DNA of 36,398 bases, taken from a virus. The stretch lies in the UHGV virus genome UHGV-1395479. The stretch is one strand, 5' to 3'. The notes beneath the pieces were generated by a model. That model did not search any database. It saw only the letters and a program-made list of their open reading frames with translations, and was not told where the DNA came from. A program made the translations under genes and the position numbers. Below, one piece after another: positions 21,592 through 36,398 of the stretch; position 1 is the first letter of the stretch; every line of letters begins with the position of its first letter.

Positions 21592-22644
21592 TTATTTCCC
21601 CACCAGCTCGTTTATCTCTTTCACTGTCTGGTTAAACCGCTCTGACTCAAGCTCAACACCTAAGGCCCGACGCCCCAGCGCCATTGCTGCTTTTATTGTG
21701 GAACCGGATCCCATAAAGAAATCAGCAACCAGATCGCCTTGTCGACTACTGGCACTGATTATTTGCCGGAGCATATCCGCAGGCTTCTCACACGGATGTT
21801 TACCCGGGTAGAACTGAACGGGTTTATGCGTCCAGACGTCGGTATAAGGCACGGAAACTGATACGGAGAAATAGCGCCGGAGAGTTTTAAACTCATCCAG
21901 CAATTCAGAATATTTGCGATTCAGTGAATCATAAGATGCCACCAGCTGGTGGTGTGGTTGTTCCAGTTGTTGTTCCTGAAATTTCTCTGCCGCTATACGG
22001 GAAAACAGTGCCTGCAACTTCCGGTAGTCAGCCTCATTCGGCAACTGCCACTGACTGGCACCAAACCAGTGGGAAACCATATTTTTCTTACCAGTGGCTT
22101 CGGCAATCTGTTTTGCCGTTATACCCAGTTCGGCACGAGCATCCCTGAAATACGAAATCAGCGGTGCCATTATGTGCTGTTTGAGTTCCCTTTCTTTTGC
22201 CGCATAATCGTCACTTTTGCCGCGATATGGCCCCTGGTAATGTTCAGCAAACAGAACGCGCTCTGTAGCGGGGAAATATGCCCGCAGGCTTTCTTTATTA
22301 CACCCGTTCCATCGTCCGGACGGCTTCGCCCAGATGATATGGTTAAGAACGTTGAAACGTTCACGCATCATGATCTCGATATCAGATGCCAGGCGATGTC
22401 CACAGAACAGGTAAAGGCTTCCGGCTGGTTTCAGTACCCGCCAGAACTGGGCCAGACAGTGGTCCAGCCACTTCAGGTAATCTTCGTCCCCTTTCCACTG
22501 ATTGTCCCAGCCGTTGGGCTTCACTTTGAAGTACGGCGGATCGGTAACAATCAGATCAATGGAGTCATCAGGCAGGGACTGAATAAAATGCAGGCAATCA
22601 GCGTTGATTAAATCAACACTGTTTATTTTTACAGTATTCTTCAT
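21592..22644 (-). CDS. Orphan DNA methyltransferase (amino-MTase, N6-adenine or N4-cytosine; DPPY then FxGxG order)
   Basis: 350 aa; N-terminal motif IV LIVTDPPY and C-terminal motif I FFMGSGST (beta-type motif order); no adjacent restriction enzyme gene; sits in late operon upstream of holin. Confidence 0.8.
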   Translation of the reverse strand: MKNTVKINSVDLINADCLHFIQSLPDDSIDLIVTDPPYFKVKPNGWDNQWKGDEDYLKWLDHCLAQFWRVLKPAGSLYLFCGHRLASDIEIMMRERFNVLNHIIWAKPSGRWNGCNKESLRAYFPATERVLFAEHYQGPYRGKSDDYAAKERELKQHIMAPLISYFRDARAELGITAKQIAEATGKKNMVSHWFGASQWQLPNEADYRKLQALFSRIAAEKFQEQQLEQPHHQLVASYDSLNRKYSELLDEFKTLRRYFSVSVSVPYTDVWTHKPVQFYPGKHPCEKPADMLRQIISASSRQGDLVADFFMGSGSTIKAAMALGRRALGVELESERFNQTVKEINELVGK

Positions 22645-22793: not shown

Positions 22794-22988
22794 TCATTGC
22801 TGAAGGCGTCTGTAACAGCCGAACTGGTAATCTGCCAGCCCCGCCATAACCAGCTGGGTCAGTATTAACTGACAGCGTTCGCGTGAAAGGTATGTGTTTT
22901 GTGCTATCTCCCCGACTGTTGCCGGTTTGCCGTTTAATTCATTAAAAACAACTTTCGCCGTTTCTGTCATATCTTGCTGTTTTAGCAT
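22794..22988 (-). CDS. Small hypothetical protein (64 aa), possibly winged-helix-like
   Basis: ORF with AAGG-type SD upstream; sequence ..ATVGEIAQNTYLSRERCQLILTQLVMAGL.. resembles small HTH proteins; no confident family. Confidence 0.35.
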   Translation of the reverse strand: MLKQQDMTETAKVVFNELNGKPATVGEIAQNTYLSRERCQLILTQLVMAGLADYQFGCYRRLQQ

Positions 22989-23111
22989 GTCTTTTTACCT
23001 TCATGGTTAACATGACATACCAATAACTCTTGTCTAAAAAGCCAGCAAGATAAAAAGTCAGTATTCACGACCACCAGCGTGTTTACCGTACTGCACCAGG
23101 TTTACAGGTAT

Positions 23112-23137
23112 AAAAAAACCCGCTCGACGGCGGGTTT
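23112..23137 (-). terminator. Rho-independent terminator (minus strand), candidate tR'-like or early-operon terminator
   Basis: GC-rich hairpin CCCGC..GCGGG (23119-23134) preceded on plus strand by A7 (23112-23118), i.e. followed by U7 on the minus-strand transcript. Confidence 0.65.
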
Positions 23138-23258
23138 AAGCTGTGTGACGAAGTAATCACTCTTAACACAGTAACGCAATTTTTGCGGACCGCGATAATG
23201 TTTTTTACACCAAAAAAAGGTATTTTATGGAAAAAAATCAAGACATAGCGAGCAAAGA

Positions 23259-24128
23259 GTGACTAAAACAACTTCTTTTCAGATCTTCTACGATGCAGAG
23301 GATAATGAATTAGCACAGCATAAAATTGATGCCAAAACATTAAGCATTTCCATAGGTTCGATGGCAGATTTAATATCAGCAGCTGATAAAAGACTTAATG
23401 ACGGCCAACAAACCGTTAAGTTAATGGTTACTAATCCAGCTGAAGCGGGATCACTCGGCGTATCCTATACGATGATGGAGCTTGTTCCTCATGCCGTCGA
23501 CGTAGCAAAAGTGATTGGCCTAACAGGGATAGCCGGGGCTACTATTGGAGCTCCAGCATTATCACTAATCCGCCAACTGGGCAGCAAGAAAGTAATTTCG
23601 GTAACAAAACGGGCAGGAACAGAAGAATCTGTTCTTGAGCTTGAAGGGGAAGAAATTGTTTGCCATGACTCAGTGGCTAAGTTAGTAACAGATCCAGAAG
23701 TCCGTGATGCCCTTGTGAATGTAGTTCGTGCACCATTAGACGGCAAACAAGGAGCAGTATTTAAGGTGCTGAATGATGAAGGCGAAGAAGTCGTTCGTCT
23801 TGAAGGAAGTGAAACCGAAGAGATCAAACCGCTGCCTAGAGGCACACTACTTGAAAAAGAAGAGTCTGTAGAAGAAGTCAATGTTAGATTCGTACAGATC
23901 AACTTCGAGGGTACAAAGGGTTGGAGAATCGATTATTTAGGCGAAGAGCATGCTGTTACCTTTGAAGATCAGTTGTTTATACACCAAGTTCAAAACGGAA
24001 TCATCAGTTTTACAAAAGAAGATTTGTTTGTTGTTGAGCTAAAAACTATAAAAACTTTCACTGCGCGAAATGCCACAACCAAGTATGCTATAACCAAAGT
24101 AAAACGAAAACGCCCTGCTGAGGCTTGA
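23259..24128 (+). CDS. Hypothetical protein A of an opposite-strand three-gene moron operon (289 aa)
   Basis: GTG start at 23259; long ORF on plus strand amid minus-strand phage genes; AT-rich; acidic, with one hydrophobic Gly-rich stretch (VIGLTGIAGATIGAPALSLI); no catalytic motif recognised. Confidence 0.7.
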   Translation: MTKTTSFQIFYDAEDNELAQHKIDAKTLSISIGSMADLISAADKRLNDGQQTVKLMVTNPAEAGSLGVSYTMMELVPHAVDVAKVIGLTGIAGATIGAPALSLIRQLGSKKVISVTKRAGTEESVLELEGEEIVCHDSVAKLVTDPEVRDALVNVVRAPLDGKQGAVFKVLNDEGEEVVRLEGSETEEIKPLPRGTLLEKEESVEEVNVRFVQINFEGTKGWRIDYLGEEHAVTFEDQLFIHQVQNGIISFTKEDLFVVELKTIKTFTARNATTKYAITKVKRKRPAEA

Positions 24129-24394
24129 CAAAAGTGACACTAAACATGCAGATAGCACAACTGATCTTCTGGATAGGGGTGATAATGATCATCCCTGCCT
24201 TTAGTCGTTTTTGCTATTCAGCGTCAGCCTTGCTTTGGCGTCGACTATTCCCTACAAAAGTCTTCGAATTCCGATATCACGATGAAGATTCCGGAGTGAC
24301 CAAAACGCTAGTAATAAAAGTTCCAAGTAAAAAGGGAAAAATGCTAACAACCCTCATTGATGAGGCAATTGCGGAGAATTCAAAACGAAAATGA
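24125..24394 (+). CDS. Small membrane protein B of the three-gene operon (up to 89 aa, one predicted TM)
   Basis: Start overlaps stop of A (TTG 24125; alternative GTG 24134 or ATG 24146); hydrophobic stretch IAQLIFWIGVIMIIPAF; stop overlaps start of C. Confidence 0.6.
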   Translation: MTKVTLNMQIAQLIFWIGVIMIIPAFSRFCYSASALLWRRLFPTKVFEFRYHDEDSGVTKTLVIKVPSKKGKMLTTLIDEAIAENSKRK

Positions 24395-24813
24395 ATTCTC
24401 AAACTAAAGGTCTAAGCACAGGAAAAGCTACCCTTTCAACTGGTGGTTGGGGAGCAATTTTAAGTGTTCTTGTTAGCGCGATTTTAACCGACCCTAATAG
24501 CGTGTGGCGAACTGTAGCCTACGCATTAGTACCGGGTGTTGCGGCAACTTTAACTTACGTCATGAATTGGTTCATTTCGAGGCATGGTTTCGAATCTCCA
24601 GAAGACGCAGCCAAAAGAGCAAAATGCAAGCGTGATTTGGCTGAGATTGAGAAGCAGTTACGATCTGACCACTTAAGTCCTGAAATAAAATCAACATTGA
24701 TGCAGGCTAAAGCAAGAACAATCGAAATTTTGGTATCAATCGGAAGGGAATCTATACTTGAAACATCTGCGCGTAACATTACACCATCAAAAACTGCCGA
24801 TCCGCAAAGCTGA
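24391..24813 (+). CDS. Membrane protein C of the three-gene operon (140 aa, two predicted TM segments)
   Basis: ATGA start/stop overlap with B at 24391-24394; hydrophobic segments GGWGAILSVLVSAILT and VAYALVPGVAATLTYVMNWFI; charged helical C-terminus. Confidence 0.7.
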   Translation: MNSQTKGLSTGKATLSTGGWGAILSVLVSAILTDPNSVWRTVAYALVPGVAATLTYVMNWFISRHGFESPEDAAKRAKCKRDLAEIEKQLRSDHLSPEIKSTLMQAKARTIEILVSIGRESILETSARNITPSKTADPQS

Positions 24814-24836
24814 GCGGCAGTTGCTATTCTGGTAGT

Positions 24837-25217
24837 CTATTGGTCCATTTCCAAACAAAGATCAAGCATTGAGAGACAGCCTTCAATAAACCCCTCAGCC
24901 ATCTGTATCTCAATGCGTATTAGTTTCTCATCCTTTTTACGAGCTTTGGCGAGCTTTCTTTTAGAGATACCGTATAGGTAATGGGCAACAAGAAGCGAAT
25001 GTTCGTCTGGCCTTTTTTGCTTTAGACGAGCAAGACAACCTTCAATAATTAATGCATCACTATCTGAACAAGCCTGACGTGTTTTGCTTGTATAGGGAAG
25101 AAGTCCCTTAAACCCAGCAGCTATAGGCGAATAGTCTACTCCTGAACTGTCACTCGCCGCCCATGCACCCCAACGTTCAAGAACCATTTGAATATCACGC
25201 ATCAACTTTCTCCACAA
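24837..25217 (-). CDS. Q: Late-gene antiterminator Q (small QuuD/phage 82-type family)
   Basis: 126 aa; MRDIQMVLERWGAWAA... resembles my recollection of DLP12 QuuD; last gene of early-right operon, upstream of lysis cassette. Confidence 0.75.
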   Translation of the reverse strand: MWRKLMRDIQMVLERWGAWAASDSSGVDYSPIAAGFKGLLPYTSKTRQACSDSDALIIEGCLARLKQKRPDEHSLLVAHYLYGISKRKLAKARKKDEKLIRIEIQMAEGFIEGCLSMLDLCLEMDQ

Positions 25218-33205: not shown

Positions 33206-33754
33206 ATGTCATTTATTAAAACTTTTTCCGGGAAGCATTTTTATTATGACAGGATAAATAAAGACGACATCGATATTAACGATATCGCGGTTTCCCTTTC
33301 AAATATCTGTCGCTTTGCAGGACATCTTTCACACTTCTACAGCGTCGCCCAACATGCGGTGCTTTGCAGCCAGCTGGTACCGCAGGAATTTGCTTTTGAA
33401 GCGTTAATGCATGATGCAACAGAAGCGTATTGCCAGGACATCCCGGCTCCACTGAAACGCCTTCTTCCTGACTATAAACGGATGGAAGAAAAAATAGACG
33501 CCGTAATCCGTGAGAAATACGGGTTACCCCCGGTTATGAGTACACCCGTGAAATATGCCGATCTCATCATGCTGGCAACCGAACGCCGCGATCTCGGGCT
33601 TGATGATGGCTCTTTCTGGCCTGTGCTGGAAGGTATCCCGGCAACAGAGATGTTCAACGTGATTCCACTGGCACCGGGCCATGCCTACGGGATGTTTATG
33701 GAACGCTTTAAAGAGCTGCATAAGATACATAAACAATCCAGACAGCGAAATTAA
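33206..33754 (+). CDS. HD-domain phosphohydrolase (YfdR-like 5'-deoxynucleotidase)
   Basis: HD motif region ..HLSHFYSVAQHAVLCSQ..ALMHDATEAY..; start set at internal Met 33206 (MSFIKTFSGKHF..); maximal ORF begins at 33179. Confidence 0.7.
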   Translation: MSFIKTFSGKHFYYDRINKDDIDINDIAVSLSNICRFAGHLSHFYSVAQHAVLCSQLVPQEFAFEALMHDATEAYCQDIPAPLKRLLPDYKRMEEKIDAVIREKYGLPPVMSTPVKYADLIMLATERRDLGLDDGSFWPVLEGIPATEMFNVIPLAPGHAYGMFMERFKELHKIHKQSRQRN

Positions 33755-33797
33755 CTAGTGAAATAGTTTTGTAGCAAAAGAAATGAGGTTATCAAAA

Positions 33798-34043
33798 ATG
33801 CTTCAAATGCTGACACTTGAGGAATGGGCTGCGGAAAAATTTAGGAGTAATCCTCCAAGTGTGTCCACATTACGTCGTTATGCTAAGCAGAATTTATTTT
33901 GTCCACCGGCAATGAAACAAGGTCGACTATGGCGAGTGCGTGAGGATGCAGAGTTAGTTGGGGAGTTAGTTACTCCAGTAATAAAGAAAAGTGATTCTAT
34001 TATTCTACAAAGGATTTTAGGTAATGGCAGCCAGACCACGTAA
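33798..34043 (+). CDS. xis: Excisionase Xis
   Basis: ..LTLEEWAAEKFRSNPPSVSTLRRYAKQNLFCPPAMKQGRLWRVRE.. parallels lambda Xis (MYLTLQEWNARQRRPRSLETVRRWVRECRIFPPPVKDGREYLF); start chosen at ATG 33798 with GAGG SD; overlaps int start. Confidence 0.8.
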   Translation: MLQMLTLEEWAAEKFRSNPPSVSTLRRYAKQNLFCPPAMKQGRLWRVREDAELVGELVTPVIKKSDSIILQRILGNGSQTT

Positions 34044-35154
34044 AAATAATGTTTCAGTCCCGAACTTGTATCCGCTTTATAGCAGAAAAGTAAATAAAGT
34101 CTATTGGCGATATAAACATCCAGTGACCGGGAAGTTTCATTCTTTAGGCACAAACGAAGCTGAAGCCATTGCTATTGCCACTGAGGCAAATTCACGCCTG
34201 GCTGAGCAAAGAACCCGGCAGATTCTGGCTATCAGTGACAGGATCGCAACCAGCAAAGGAAAAGCAATCACAACGTCAACCTGGTTAGATCGCTATCAAG
34301 CAATCCAGGATGACAGACTGGAAAGTGGCGATATAAAGCTCAACACCTATAAACAGAAAGCCAAACCAGTATCCTTGCTCAGGGAACGAGCAGGAATGAA
34401 ATTAATTTCATCAGTTGATGTAAGGGATATAGCACAATTGCTTGACGAGTATATCACTGCCGGGCAACCGAGGATGGCGCAAGTAGTCCGCTCCGTTCTA
34501 ATTGATGTATTCAAGGAGGCACAACACTATGGGGAAGTCCCTCCGGGCTATAATCCTGCACTGGCAACCAAACAACCCAGAAGAAAAATTACCCGACAAC
34601 GGTTAAATCTTGAAGAGTGGCAAAAAATCTTTGATATTGCAGATGCCAGTCATCGTTATATGGGGAATGCCATGCTGTTAGCACTGGTTACCGGCCAACG
34701 GTTAGGTGATATCTCACGTATGAAATTTAGCGATATTTGGGATGATCATCTTCACGTCATCCAGGAAAAAACCGGGAGCAAAATCGCCATCCCGCTTTCT
34801 CTGCGCCTCAATGCGATTAACTGGAGTTTGCGCGATGTAGTAGCCCGTTGCCGTGACTATGCTGTCAGCCCATACCTTGTACATTTTTTTCGTACTACTT
34901 CACAGGCTGAACGCGGCGCACAGGTTAAAGCCAATACCTTGACTATGAATTTCAGTAAAGCAAGAGATTTAGCAGGAATTGATTGGGGGAAAGGTTCACC
35001 TGCCACATTCCATGAACAACGGTCTTTATCTGAACGTCTGTACAAAGAACAGGGGATCGATACTAGAAAGCTACTGGGCCATAAAACCCAGCAGCAAACA
35101 GATCGCTACCATGATGACCGAGGGAAAGATTGGAGTAAAATAGCTATAATTTGA
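34024..35154 (+). CDS. int: Tyrosine integrase (lambda Int family)
   Basis: 376 aa; lambda Int-like throughout, including ..FHEQRSLSERLY.. and catalytic-Tyr region LLGHKTQQQTDRYHDDRGKDW. Confidence 0.95.
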   Translation: MAARPRKNNVSVPNLYPLYSRKVNKVYWRYKHPVTGKFHSLGTNEAEAIAIATEANSRLAEQRTRQILAISDRIATSKGKAITTSTWLDRYQAIQDDRLESGDIKLNTYKQKAKPVSLLRERAGMKLISSVDVRDIAQLLDEYITAGQPRMAQVVRSVLIDVFKEAQHYGEVPPGYNPALATKQPRRKITRQRLNLEEWQKIFDIADASHRYMGNAMLLALVTGQRLGDISRMKFSDIWDDHLHVIQEKTGSKIAIPLSLRLNAINWSLRDVVARCRDYAVSPYLVHFFRTTSQAERGAQVKANTLTMNFSKARDLAGIDWGKGSPATFHEQRSLSERLYKEQGIDTRKLLGHKTQQQTDRYHDDRGKDWSKIAII

Positions 35155-36004
35155 CTCTTGTAGGATCCATATCATCAGGAATAGAAATGCTATCACAAAA
35201 AAAGATTACTTCTGGCCCTTGGTACCTAGATTGAGCACTATAGCTGATACCGTACTCAATTTTTCTAAGACCAGTGTACATGTTGTTTATTTCAACAGTA
35301 TTATCGTAAGATACAATCCATGGATGCTTTGAATTAGATTTTATAATATTAGCAATTTCGACATGATCATCATGACTATAATGGTTTTGATACAAGCCCT
35401 TTCCTTTAACATAATATGGAGGGTCAAGATAAAGCAATGTTTTTAATGGGAATCCAGTTACAGTATTTTGCAAGAATGATTTAGCATCTTGGTTATAGAT
35501 ACAAATATCAGATTTACGGTCTGCTATTACCTTAATACGGTTTACTAAATCAACCTTATTAAATCGAGCATCTATTTTCCATTTTCCATTTTGTTCCTTA
35601 CCACCAATTACACCACCTAACAAAATTCCTGACCGATTTGTTCGATTAAGGAAAAACGTAGCGAATCCAACTTCCAATGAGGAATAATCACATTGATTAC
35701 TAATGATATTTTTATTCTTATACCATTCATCCATATTCACAGGGGTTTTTTCAATTAATTGGCAAAACTGATCAGTTTCTTCTAGAATTGACCGCCAAAA
35801 ACAAAAAATGGCGTTATTAAGATCGTTTAAATGTATACGTGATGCTTTCCCAGACAAAAGTAAATTAATGGCTACTCCAGCACCACCAGCATACGGCTCA
35901 ACATATTCGCAACCATCTAAACCATTGATCATAATGATCTTTGATAGATAGTTAGTTAATTTACCTTTACCACCAGGATACCGTAATGGGGTGCTGAATC
36001 TCAT
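35144..36004 (-). CDS. Dam-like (D12 class) N6-adenine DNA methyltransferase
   Basis: 286 aa; N-terminal motif I VEPYAGGAGVAINLL and C-terminal LYLDPPYY; very AT-rich; its stop overlaps the int stop (convergent). Confidence 0.8.
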   Translation of the reverse strand: MRFSTPLRYPGGKGKLTNYLSKIIMINGLDGCEYVEPYAGGAGVAINLLLSGKASRIHLNDLNNAIFCFWRSILEETDQFCQLIEKTPVNMDEWYKNKNIISNQCDYSSLEVGFATFFLNRTNRSGILLGGVIGGKEQNGKWKIDARFNKVDLVNRIKVIADRKSDICIYNQDAKSFLQNTVTGFPLKTLLYLDPPYYVKGKGLYQNHYSHDDHVEIANIIKSNSKHPWIVSYDNTVEINNMYTGLRKIEYGISYSAQSRYQGPEVIFFCDSISIPDDMDPTRVKL

Positions 36005-36398
36005 ATCTTATACTCAACGATCAAAAACTACTGTATATAATACCACATTATCTGGTTTCAGGATACCATAGAATCACTTAGTCACAACGCTCTTAACTCT
36101 TTCAGGATTAAGGCCAAATTCTTCCCCTATAACAAAGCGCAATGCTTCGATAAGAGTATCGTTAAACTTGTCTACCAATATTTTATTATCCTCAGCCCAC
36201 TTTCTATATGGATTGTATTTTACACCGCCACATTTTATCAGTTCTTGTAATGTTTTCTCCTGTATAAATTTTTTGAATAACTCTCTTATCCTTGAACCAT
36301 CAAGTTTATCTTTATTAACTTCTTTTATTTTTTCTTTTAATTTTTTTACTTTTATATAGTTTTCAATTTATCAGTATAAATAATAATGTGACTAAAAC

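Follow-up and report, generated by a model that had tools for sequence, protein, structure and literature searches.

Several described systems bear on the locus examined here. The cryptic prophage e14 of Escherichia coli K-12 inserts itself within icd, whose 3' end it replaces with a copy of its own (PMC6379469). PD-lambda-5, a validated two-gene prophage system, comes from ECOR7 and was given the description "ParB/HEPN, methyltransferase"; its protection extends to almost every phage tested, its cloning required an mrr-deleted host, and Vassallo et al. read it as a compacted prophage system that joins restriction-modification (RM) to abortive infection (Abi) (PMC9519451). HEC-04 is a validated defence protein of the ABC-ATPase-TOPRIM type; its gene is sufficient for protection, and both the Walker A lysine and an E/DxD metal site are required. 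Here we analyze UHGV virus genome UHGV-1395479, a stretch of 36,398 nucleotides (nt) that we refer to as the window, and in particular its AT-rich end, which follows the integrase gene (int) and encodes a DNA adenine methylase. The prophage and the logic of its attachment (att) site are already known from e14, as are a defence gene (lit) in the corresponding slot and the PD-lambda-5_B family of methylases.

We propose, with a probability of roughly 80%, that the AT-rich end of the window is cargo of an e14-like prophage that integrates in icd, and that this cargo consists of an intact methylase gene and the stump of an ATPase gene, both derived from a restriction-like pair. The key comparison is with the chromosome of Escherichia coli EC190486, which is 100% identical to the window over 33274-36343. 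It is annotated in the order yfdP-yfdQ-yfdR-xisE-intE, followed on the opposite strand by the methylase gene and a gene for a 569-amino-acid (aa) "AAA family ATPase", and then by icd. Since the att core of such relatives lies in icd, beyond the ATPase gene, the methylase and the ATPase are placed inside the phage, between int and attP. A minus-strand open reading frame (ORF) without a start codon, upstream of the methylase gene, would be the 3' stump of the partner gene, because it translates into residues 481-569 of the EC190486 ATPase and the DNA from 36344 onward is unrelated. Judged by these alignments, the AT-rich block is phage cargo and not a prophage end, and the start-less ORF is a gene stump.

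Several elements of this picture were already present in an initial annotation made from the letters alone. The sharp fall in G+C content (GC) that it reported from 35144 onward is borne out by the composition of the window: GC is 0.322 over 35144-36398 against 0.530 over 1-35143, and the minimum of any other 1255-nt stretch is 0.414. The ORF map and Pfam (PF02086) agree with the D12-class methylase that it placed at 35144-36004 on the minus strand, converging on int with overlapping stop codons; the two genes have 11 nt in common, both stop codons included, and this overlap is kept in 10/10 related contigs examined. Its label "Dam-like" holds for the D12 class and fails for the dam family proper, in which the methylase scores 61.3 bits, below the NCBIfam cut-off of 114.85 (TIGR00571). 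The start-less frame that it described exists, at coordinates that were one base out of frame; its guess that this ORF was a decayed partner gene is upheld by the 3' remnant of the methylase partner, but the controller or endonuclease that it had in mind gives way to an ABC ATPase. Finally, one of its two suggestions for the methylase, phage cargo between int and att, is supported by relatives that run int, methylase, ATPase and icd, with att inside icd.

Table 1. Features at the int end of the window, in window coordinates
Feature	Position	Strand	Basis
xisE-type excisionase	33783..34043	+	Pfam Exc, E 2.7e-12; annotated xisE in EC190486
intE-type tyrosine integrase, 376 aa, e14 kind, icd-integrating	34024..35154	+	Pfam; identity to IntE
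Junction of conserved int and variable cargo	35137..35154		689R6 DNA homology ends at ~35137; three int 3' ends aligned
Predicted alpha-class N6-adenine DNA methylase, 286 aa, intact, PD-lambda-5_B family, ATPase-linked clade	35144..36004	-	ATG start; profiles
Spacer, ATPase stop to methylase start, 69 nt	36005..36073		Identical to EC190486
3' remnant of ABC-ATPase/Toprim-like gene, codons 481-569 of 569 plus stop	36074..36343	-	Equals EC190486 residues 481-569
AT-rich tail, 55 nt, GC 0.16, replacing the rest of the ATPase gene	36344..36398		Four stop codons in the ATPase frame

A methylase family and its ATPase partner

The methylase matches the D12 class of Pfam with an expect value (E) of 8.7e-18 and contains the motifs YAGGAG and DPPYY; DPPY and an N-terminal PLRYPGGK are invariant across 34 homologues. 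Among PADLOC profiles it matches PD-Lambda-5_B (PDLC04018) at E 1.9e-121, over profile positions 3-280 of 291, and MTase_II (PDLC03358) at E 6.2e-103, which classes it as a type II methyltransferase as well. A genuine PD-lambda-5 pair, from the P2 hotspot of strain KL53, scores 7e-167 with the A profile and 2.2e-121 with the B profile, so that the window methylase is on a par with KL53 as component B. Component A has no counterpart within the window, where the upstream remnant is that of an ABC ATPase. RefSeq uses an internal start for the methylase of EC190486, which gives 262 aa; the longer form, of 286 aa, is likely to be the correct one, because the alignment begins at profile position 3 and takes in the invariant PLRYPGGK.

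In EC190486 the full-length partner can be examined. Pfam assigns it to AAA_15/AAA_21, and its ABC ATPase head contains the Walker A and Walker B motifs. Its best PADLOC match is HEC-04, at E 3.4e-22 and over part of the profile, while PD-Lambda-5_A lies outside the best 25 of 114 PADLOC matches. The C-terminal domain matched nothing in Pfam at E up to 10 or in a PDB profile search. Structure comparison of this domain returned weak Toprim matches, and E358/D359 and D412/D414 are invariant in 45 homologues; from the conserved motifs together with the weak fold matches, we infer that the C-terminal part is a Toprim-like nuclease domain. No model in PADLOC 2.0 or NCBIfam 20.0 is dedicated to this family, and it is possible that an earlier computational description of it exists.

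How closely the two genes belong together is apparent from their distribution. We compiled 80 loci that encode the ATPase, each from a different species and together spanning Gamma- and Betaproteobacteria, Bacteroidota, Mycobacterium, Listeria, Geobacter and Acidobacteria; two are cut by a contig end, leaving 78 informative. A D12 methylase lies directly downstream of the ATPase on the same strand, after a spacer of 29-163 nt, at 72/80 loci, and nearby in another arrangement at 5/80, four of which also have a PD-lambda-5_A homologue. A methylase is therefore present at 77/78 informative loci, and a single locus (1/80), in Aggregatibacter kilianii, has the ATPase without one. A second set was drawn from metagenomes and consists of 80 loci with a methylase of the PD-lambda-5_B family. 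Here a PD-lambda-5_A-like protein stands just upstream of the methylase at 39/80 loci, the ATPase is the partner at 35/80, both effectors occur at 1/80, neither occurs at 2/80 despite room upstream, and 3/80 are too short to classify. At 75/77 informative metagenomic loci, then, the methylase comes with one or other effector, the two being about equally frequent. The PD-lambda-5 methylase family would accordingly have a second, equally frequent effector partner.

The methylases also differ according to the partner they have. They cluster by partner type, with 138/141 nearest neighbours of the same type and about 5 partner switches on a methylase tree of 153 tips, and methylases with the same kind of partner are on average 66% identical, against 48% for those with different ones. 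The genome set was picked via the ATPase, which biases the proportions and leaves the clustering unaffected. These comparisons show a near-obligate linkage between methylase and ATPase, with co-divergence of the two, and linkage and co-divergence in turn argue for direct functional dependence. Two effector types can apparently share one methylase: three-gene loci with the ATPase, a PD-lambda-5_A homologue and one methylase (L028, L039, L042, L079, L113 and L164) come from Enterovibrio, Edaphovirga, Kushneria, Mycolicibacter, Sterolibacterium and one metagenome contig. The pair is found in mobile and phage settings, adjoining int in another E. coli prophage (JJ1886), in the order int-ATPase-methylase in the circular genome of phage phiNP (Citrobacter rodentium), in an integrative conjugative element, beside a CI-like repressor in Pseudomonas, and among tail genes in Acinetobacter.

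Based on these observations, we propose that the slot in the window lineage took up, by horizontal transfer, an AT-rich operon of two genes, in which a 569-aa ATPase is followed 69 nt on by a 286-aa methylase. The intact pair might act as a restriction-like anti-phage system, a sister of PD-lambda-5. Its methylase would mark the DNA of the cell and the prophage as own, and its ATPase-Toprim protein could attack incoming DNA that lacks the mark or trigger abortive infection. More broadly, and tentatively, at a little below even odds, the ATPase/Toprim-like protein and the D12 methylase may constitute an unnamed anti-phage system about as common as PD-lambda-5, with one methylase family licensing either effector and occasionally both. 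The pair was found in at least 77 species of Proteobacteria, Bacteroidota, Actinobacteria, Firmicutes and Acidobacteria. If this is true, its design would be that of a methylation-gated effector lying between classical restriction-modification and abortive infection, and the window would hold a natural derivative of such a system in which the effector has been lost. If the pair protects, genome surveys in which these loci now pass for orphan methylases miss part of a common defence system, and the presence of two effectors on one methylase scaffold would allow asking how non-classical nucleases read methylation.

Four points weigh against the reading of the AT-rich end as cargo left from a restriction-like pair. 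The defence role of the ATPase-methylase pair is argued by analogy and from gene linkage. The nuclease would not always depend on a neighbouring methylase, since the Aggregatibacter kilianii ATPase stands alone. The att site was located in relatives and lies outside the window itself. Lastly, the truncation rests on 55 unmatched nt at the very end of the window, where an assembly artefact is possible.

The alternative that survives best concerns the division of labour within the pair. The ATPase-Toprim protein could be an autonomous sensor and effector of the HEC-04, PARIS or PrrC type, which a phage factor would set off to cause abortive infection, and the methylase a separate epigenetic or anti-restriction partner that does not serve self-protection. 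We consider this unlikely, but it stays alive because of the autonomy of HEC-04 and the solo gene in Aggregatibacter kilianii. The latter (L114, 3818-5671) is seemingly intact, with its ATPase and E/DxD motifs present, and lies between fabA and a permease gene, with no methylase or methylase remnant within 4 kb. The view of PD-lambda-5 as a compacted RM+Abi system also agrees with such an arrangement, as does the response of ABC-Toprim effectors such as PARIS to anti-restriction proteins. Set against it are the same-strand ATPase-methylase linkage in 72/78 informative species loci, the co-divergence of the methylase with its partner type, and the state of the window itself, where the loss of the effector and the retention of the methylase fit restriction-modification logic.

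A probable truncated copy

The start-less frame is open from 36367 down to 36077 and ends in a TGA stop at 36074-36076; no ATG, GTG or TTG start in this frame yields an ORF of at least 40 aa. Identity to EC190486 ends at 36343, and 36344 is the first mismatch. The alignment shows a predicted ATPase gene cut at 36343/36344, with its last 89 codons left and the methylase gene intact. In a structure model of the full-length ATPase (mean predicted local distance difference test score, pLDDT, 87), only helices follow residue 459; the stump would correspond to a C-terminal helical bundle that contains neither the ATPase nor the Toprim-like part. We considered two further origins for the DNA beyond the junction and rejected both: an internal deletion joining the upstream region of the ATPase gene to its 3' end, because the tail is unlike that region, and a divergent ATPase allele, because of the in-frame stop codons.

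The window copy would thus have lost its effector and be at most a solitary methylase. Loss of the effector first is the order that a restriction-like pair would tolerate, and the reverse order is one that it would not. A solitary methylase could still pre-methylate phage DNA and so shield induced phage from related systems. The window locus amounts to ordinary cargo of a prophage, in the form of a degenerate copy of what seems to be an unnamed sister system of PD-lambda-5.

Whether the loss is biological depends on the tail. It is improbable, in our estimate, that the 55-nt tail arose as an artefact at a contig end or in a chimeric assembly and that the source genome has an intact pair. The divergent sequence is exactly 55 nt long, a common de Bruijn k; it sits at the end of the window and is of low complexity and AT-rich; and it gave no meaningful match in complete E. 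coli genomes, plasmids, phages, IMG/VR (three patterns), GTDB representative genomes or JGI metagenomes, and no repeat within the window. All other copies seen, in 10 contexts of the exact methylase, are intact, and a search for the source contig via the exact methylase protein likewise returned intact loci alone. However, a 55-nt overhang is also what an assembly with k=55 would leave if a multi-copy element had truly inserted there, and decayed copies of the pair occur elsewhere (loci L109 and L116).

We regard as very improbable a second account of the remnant, in which the locus is what is left of an orthodox type II RM system and the start-less ORF is a decayed controller or PD-(D/E)XK endonuclease. 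The match to the PADLOC type II methylase model fits such an origin, and a convergent, AT-rich, mobile setting is usual for RM systems. However, the remnant equals the last part of an ABC ATPase, no restriction-endonuclease or controller-protein family matches it, and the ATPase or a PD-lambda-5_A-like protein is the methylase partner in 152/155 informative loci.

In the spacer between the ATPase and methylase genes, we noticed by eye that TACTGTATATAATACCACAT at 36029-36048 agrees with the LexA box consensus TACTGTATATATATACAGTA throughout its first 11 bases; the other half-site fits poorly, and the overall agreement is 13/20.

The int-to-att slot of icd prophages

Pfam recognizes in int a lambda-integrase arm-binding domain (E 7e-37) in addition to Phage_integrase, and the protein is 94.7% identical to IntE of K-12 e14 and 96% identical to the integrase of phage vB_EcoM-689R6. 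An IntE-type integrase together with an excisionase, which RefSeq relatives start at the position equivalent to 33798, identifies an e14-type prophage. The exact methylase protein is recorded in 1062 blocks of the assembly collection and on 511 contigs, and all 10 of the distinct contexts returned have the order icd, ATPase (569 aa), methylase (286 aa) and int (376 aa). Taken together, gene content and gene order show that the window is the int end of a predicted e14-like lambdoid prophage integrating in icd.

The position of att follows from EC190486. There, 164 nt of the icd end are duplicated: one copy belongs to the icd gene beside the ATPase gene, the other to an icd fragment of 168 nt at the opposite end of the prophage. 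A 28-nt identical block, TGCTGCGCCATATGGGTTGGACTGAAGC, opens this duplication and is common to attL and attR. In window numbering, the core would fall at around 38090-38116, some 1.7 kb outside the window. K-12 e14 shares this att layout, with ymfD-ymfE-lit in the slot from int to att; the corresponding slot of phage vB_EcoM-689R6, from int to icd, holds a DUF262 protein and a hypothetical protein. As these alignments show, the e14-like icd phages carry a predicted variable cargo slot between int and attP, and their att core would lie inside a phage-borne copy of the icd 3' end. With lit in K-12, the DUF262 protein in 689R6 and the ATPase-methylase pair in the window lineage, the int-to-att slot of icd prophages appears to be a defence hotspot.

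The cargo boundary can be placed within int. The int proteins of the three cargo variants read ...DRGKDW and then SKIAII, SKVAL or MYIHQF, and homology ends within the last six codons. The aligned ends show a predicted cargo cassette that starts inside the end of int, supplies its last codons and overlaps its stop; a cassette that begins there accounts for both the overlapping stops and the sharp step in composition. A terminator-like hairpin of 11 pairs followed by a T-rich run lies at 35070-35095 on the minus strand, 3' of the methylase stop and within the int coding sequence; a promoter and terminator scan of 34900-36398 gave counts not above those of shuffled controls.

In lambda, the att core lies close to int. 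That precedent, the abruptness of a GC drop exactly at the int stop and the break in int allele homology at ~35137 would all suit a prophage that ends at ~35144, with att inside or adjoining the 3' end of the methylase gene, and the latter belonging to host or other-island DNA; this is the least probable reading of all, given that the methylase-ATPase block travels with int beside icd in 10/10 contexts, that the att duplication is in icd beyond the ATPase, that this place is taken by other cargo in K-12 e14 and in phage 689R6, that phage phiNP carries int, ATPase and methylase within its circular genome, and that the window contains no att-like core. The initial annotation had rightly reported the lambda attP core missing, and a search of both strands finds GCTTTTTTATACTAA nowhere in the window. 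Its other suggestion, att inside or adjoining the methylase 3' end, or a boundary at 35144, finds no support, the att core being in icd; by its own account, an att repeat well beyond 36398 would speak against that view, and this is where att lies in relatives identical over 33274-36343.

Other parts of these prophages also contain features of interest. The attR end of EC190486, at the place of mcrA in K-12 e14, encodes a type II restriction endonuclease, a C5 cytosine methylase and a GIY-YIG protein and also carries two IS3 copies. Both ends of these icd prophages seem to act as defence slots. In addition, an abortive-infection family gene interrupts the major capsid gene of EC190486. In the window, a second, unrelated methylase of 349 aa is encoded at 21592-22641 on the minus strand, between the lysis/Q and head genes (Pfam N6_N4_Mtase, E 8e-42). 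A stretch of lower GC (0.40-0.45) at 22800-25200, beside the Q antiterminator gene (24837-25217, minus), contains two plus-strand ORFs without a Pfam match (23259-24128 and 24391-24813) and may be a further cargo slot.

Comparison with known systems

The element in the window resembles e14 of K-12 in its integrase (94.7% identical), its xisE, an att in icd with a duplicated 3' end, and the position of its cargo slot. It differs from e14 in its cargo, which is a methylase and an ATPase remnant where K-12 has ymfD-ymfE-lit, and it keeps a full lambdoid set of tail, head and lysis genes.

With PD-lambda-5, the predicted pair has in common the methylase family, the arrangement of an upstream effector and a downstream methylase on the same strand, and the residence in prophage hotspots. 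However, the partner here is an ABC ATPase of ~570 aa with a putative Toprim-like domain and not a ParB/HEPN-like protein, the methylases of the two partner types form separate clades, and the window copy is without a functional partner. The ATPases of HEC-04, OLD, GajA, AriA-AriB and retron PtuA type are distant relatives (E 3e-22, and 15-20% identity to solved structures); the ATPase of the window family is nearly always coupled to a D12 methylase, whereas those systems are not. An orthodox type II system would have an adjacent restriction endonuclease, and at this locus there is no match to a restriction endonuclease family and the neighbour is the ABC ATPase remnant. As a solitary D12-class adenine methylase in a prophage, the window locus now looks like the orphan Dam-type methylases of phages, but it does not belong to the NCBIfam dam family, and its relatives are solitary in just 2/77 informative loci.

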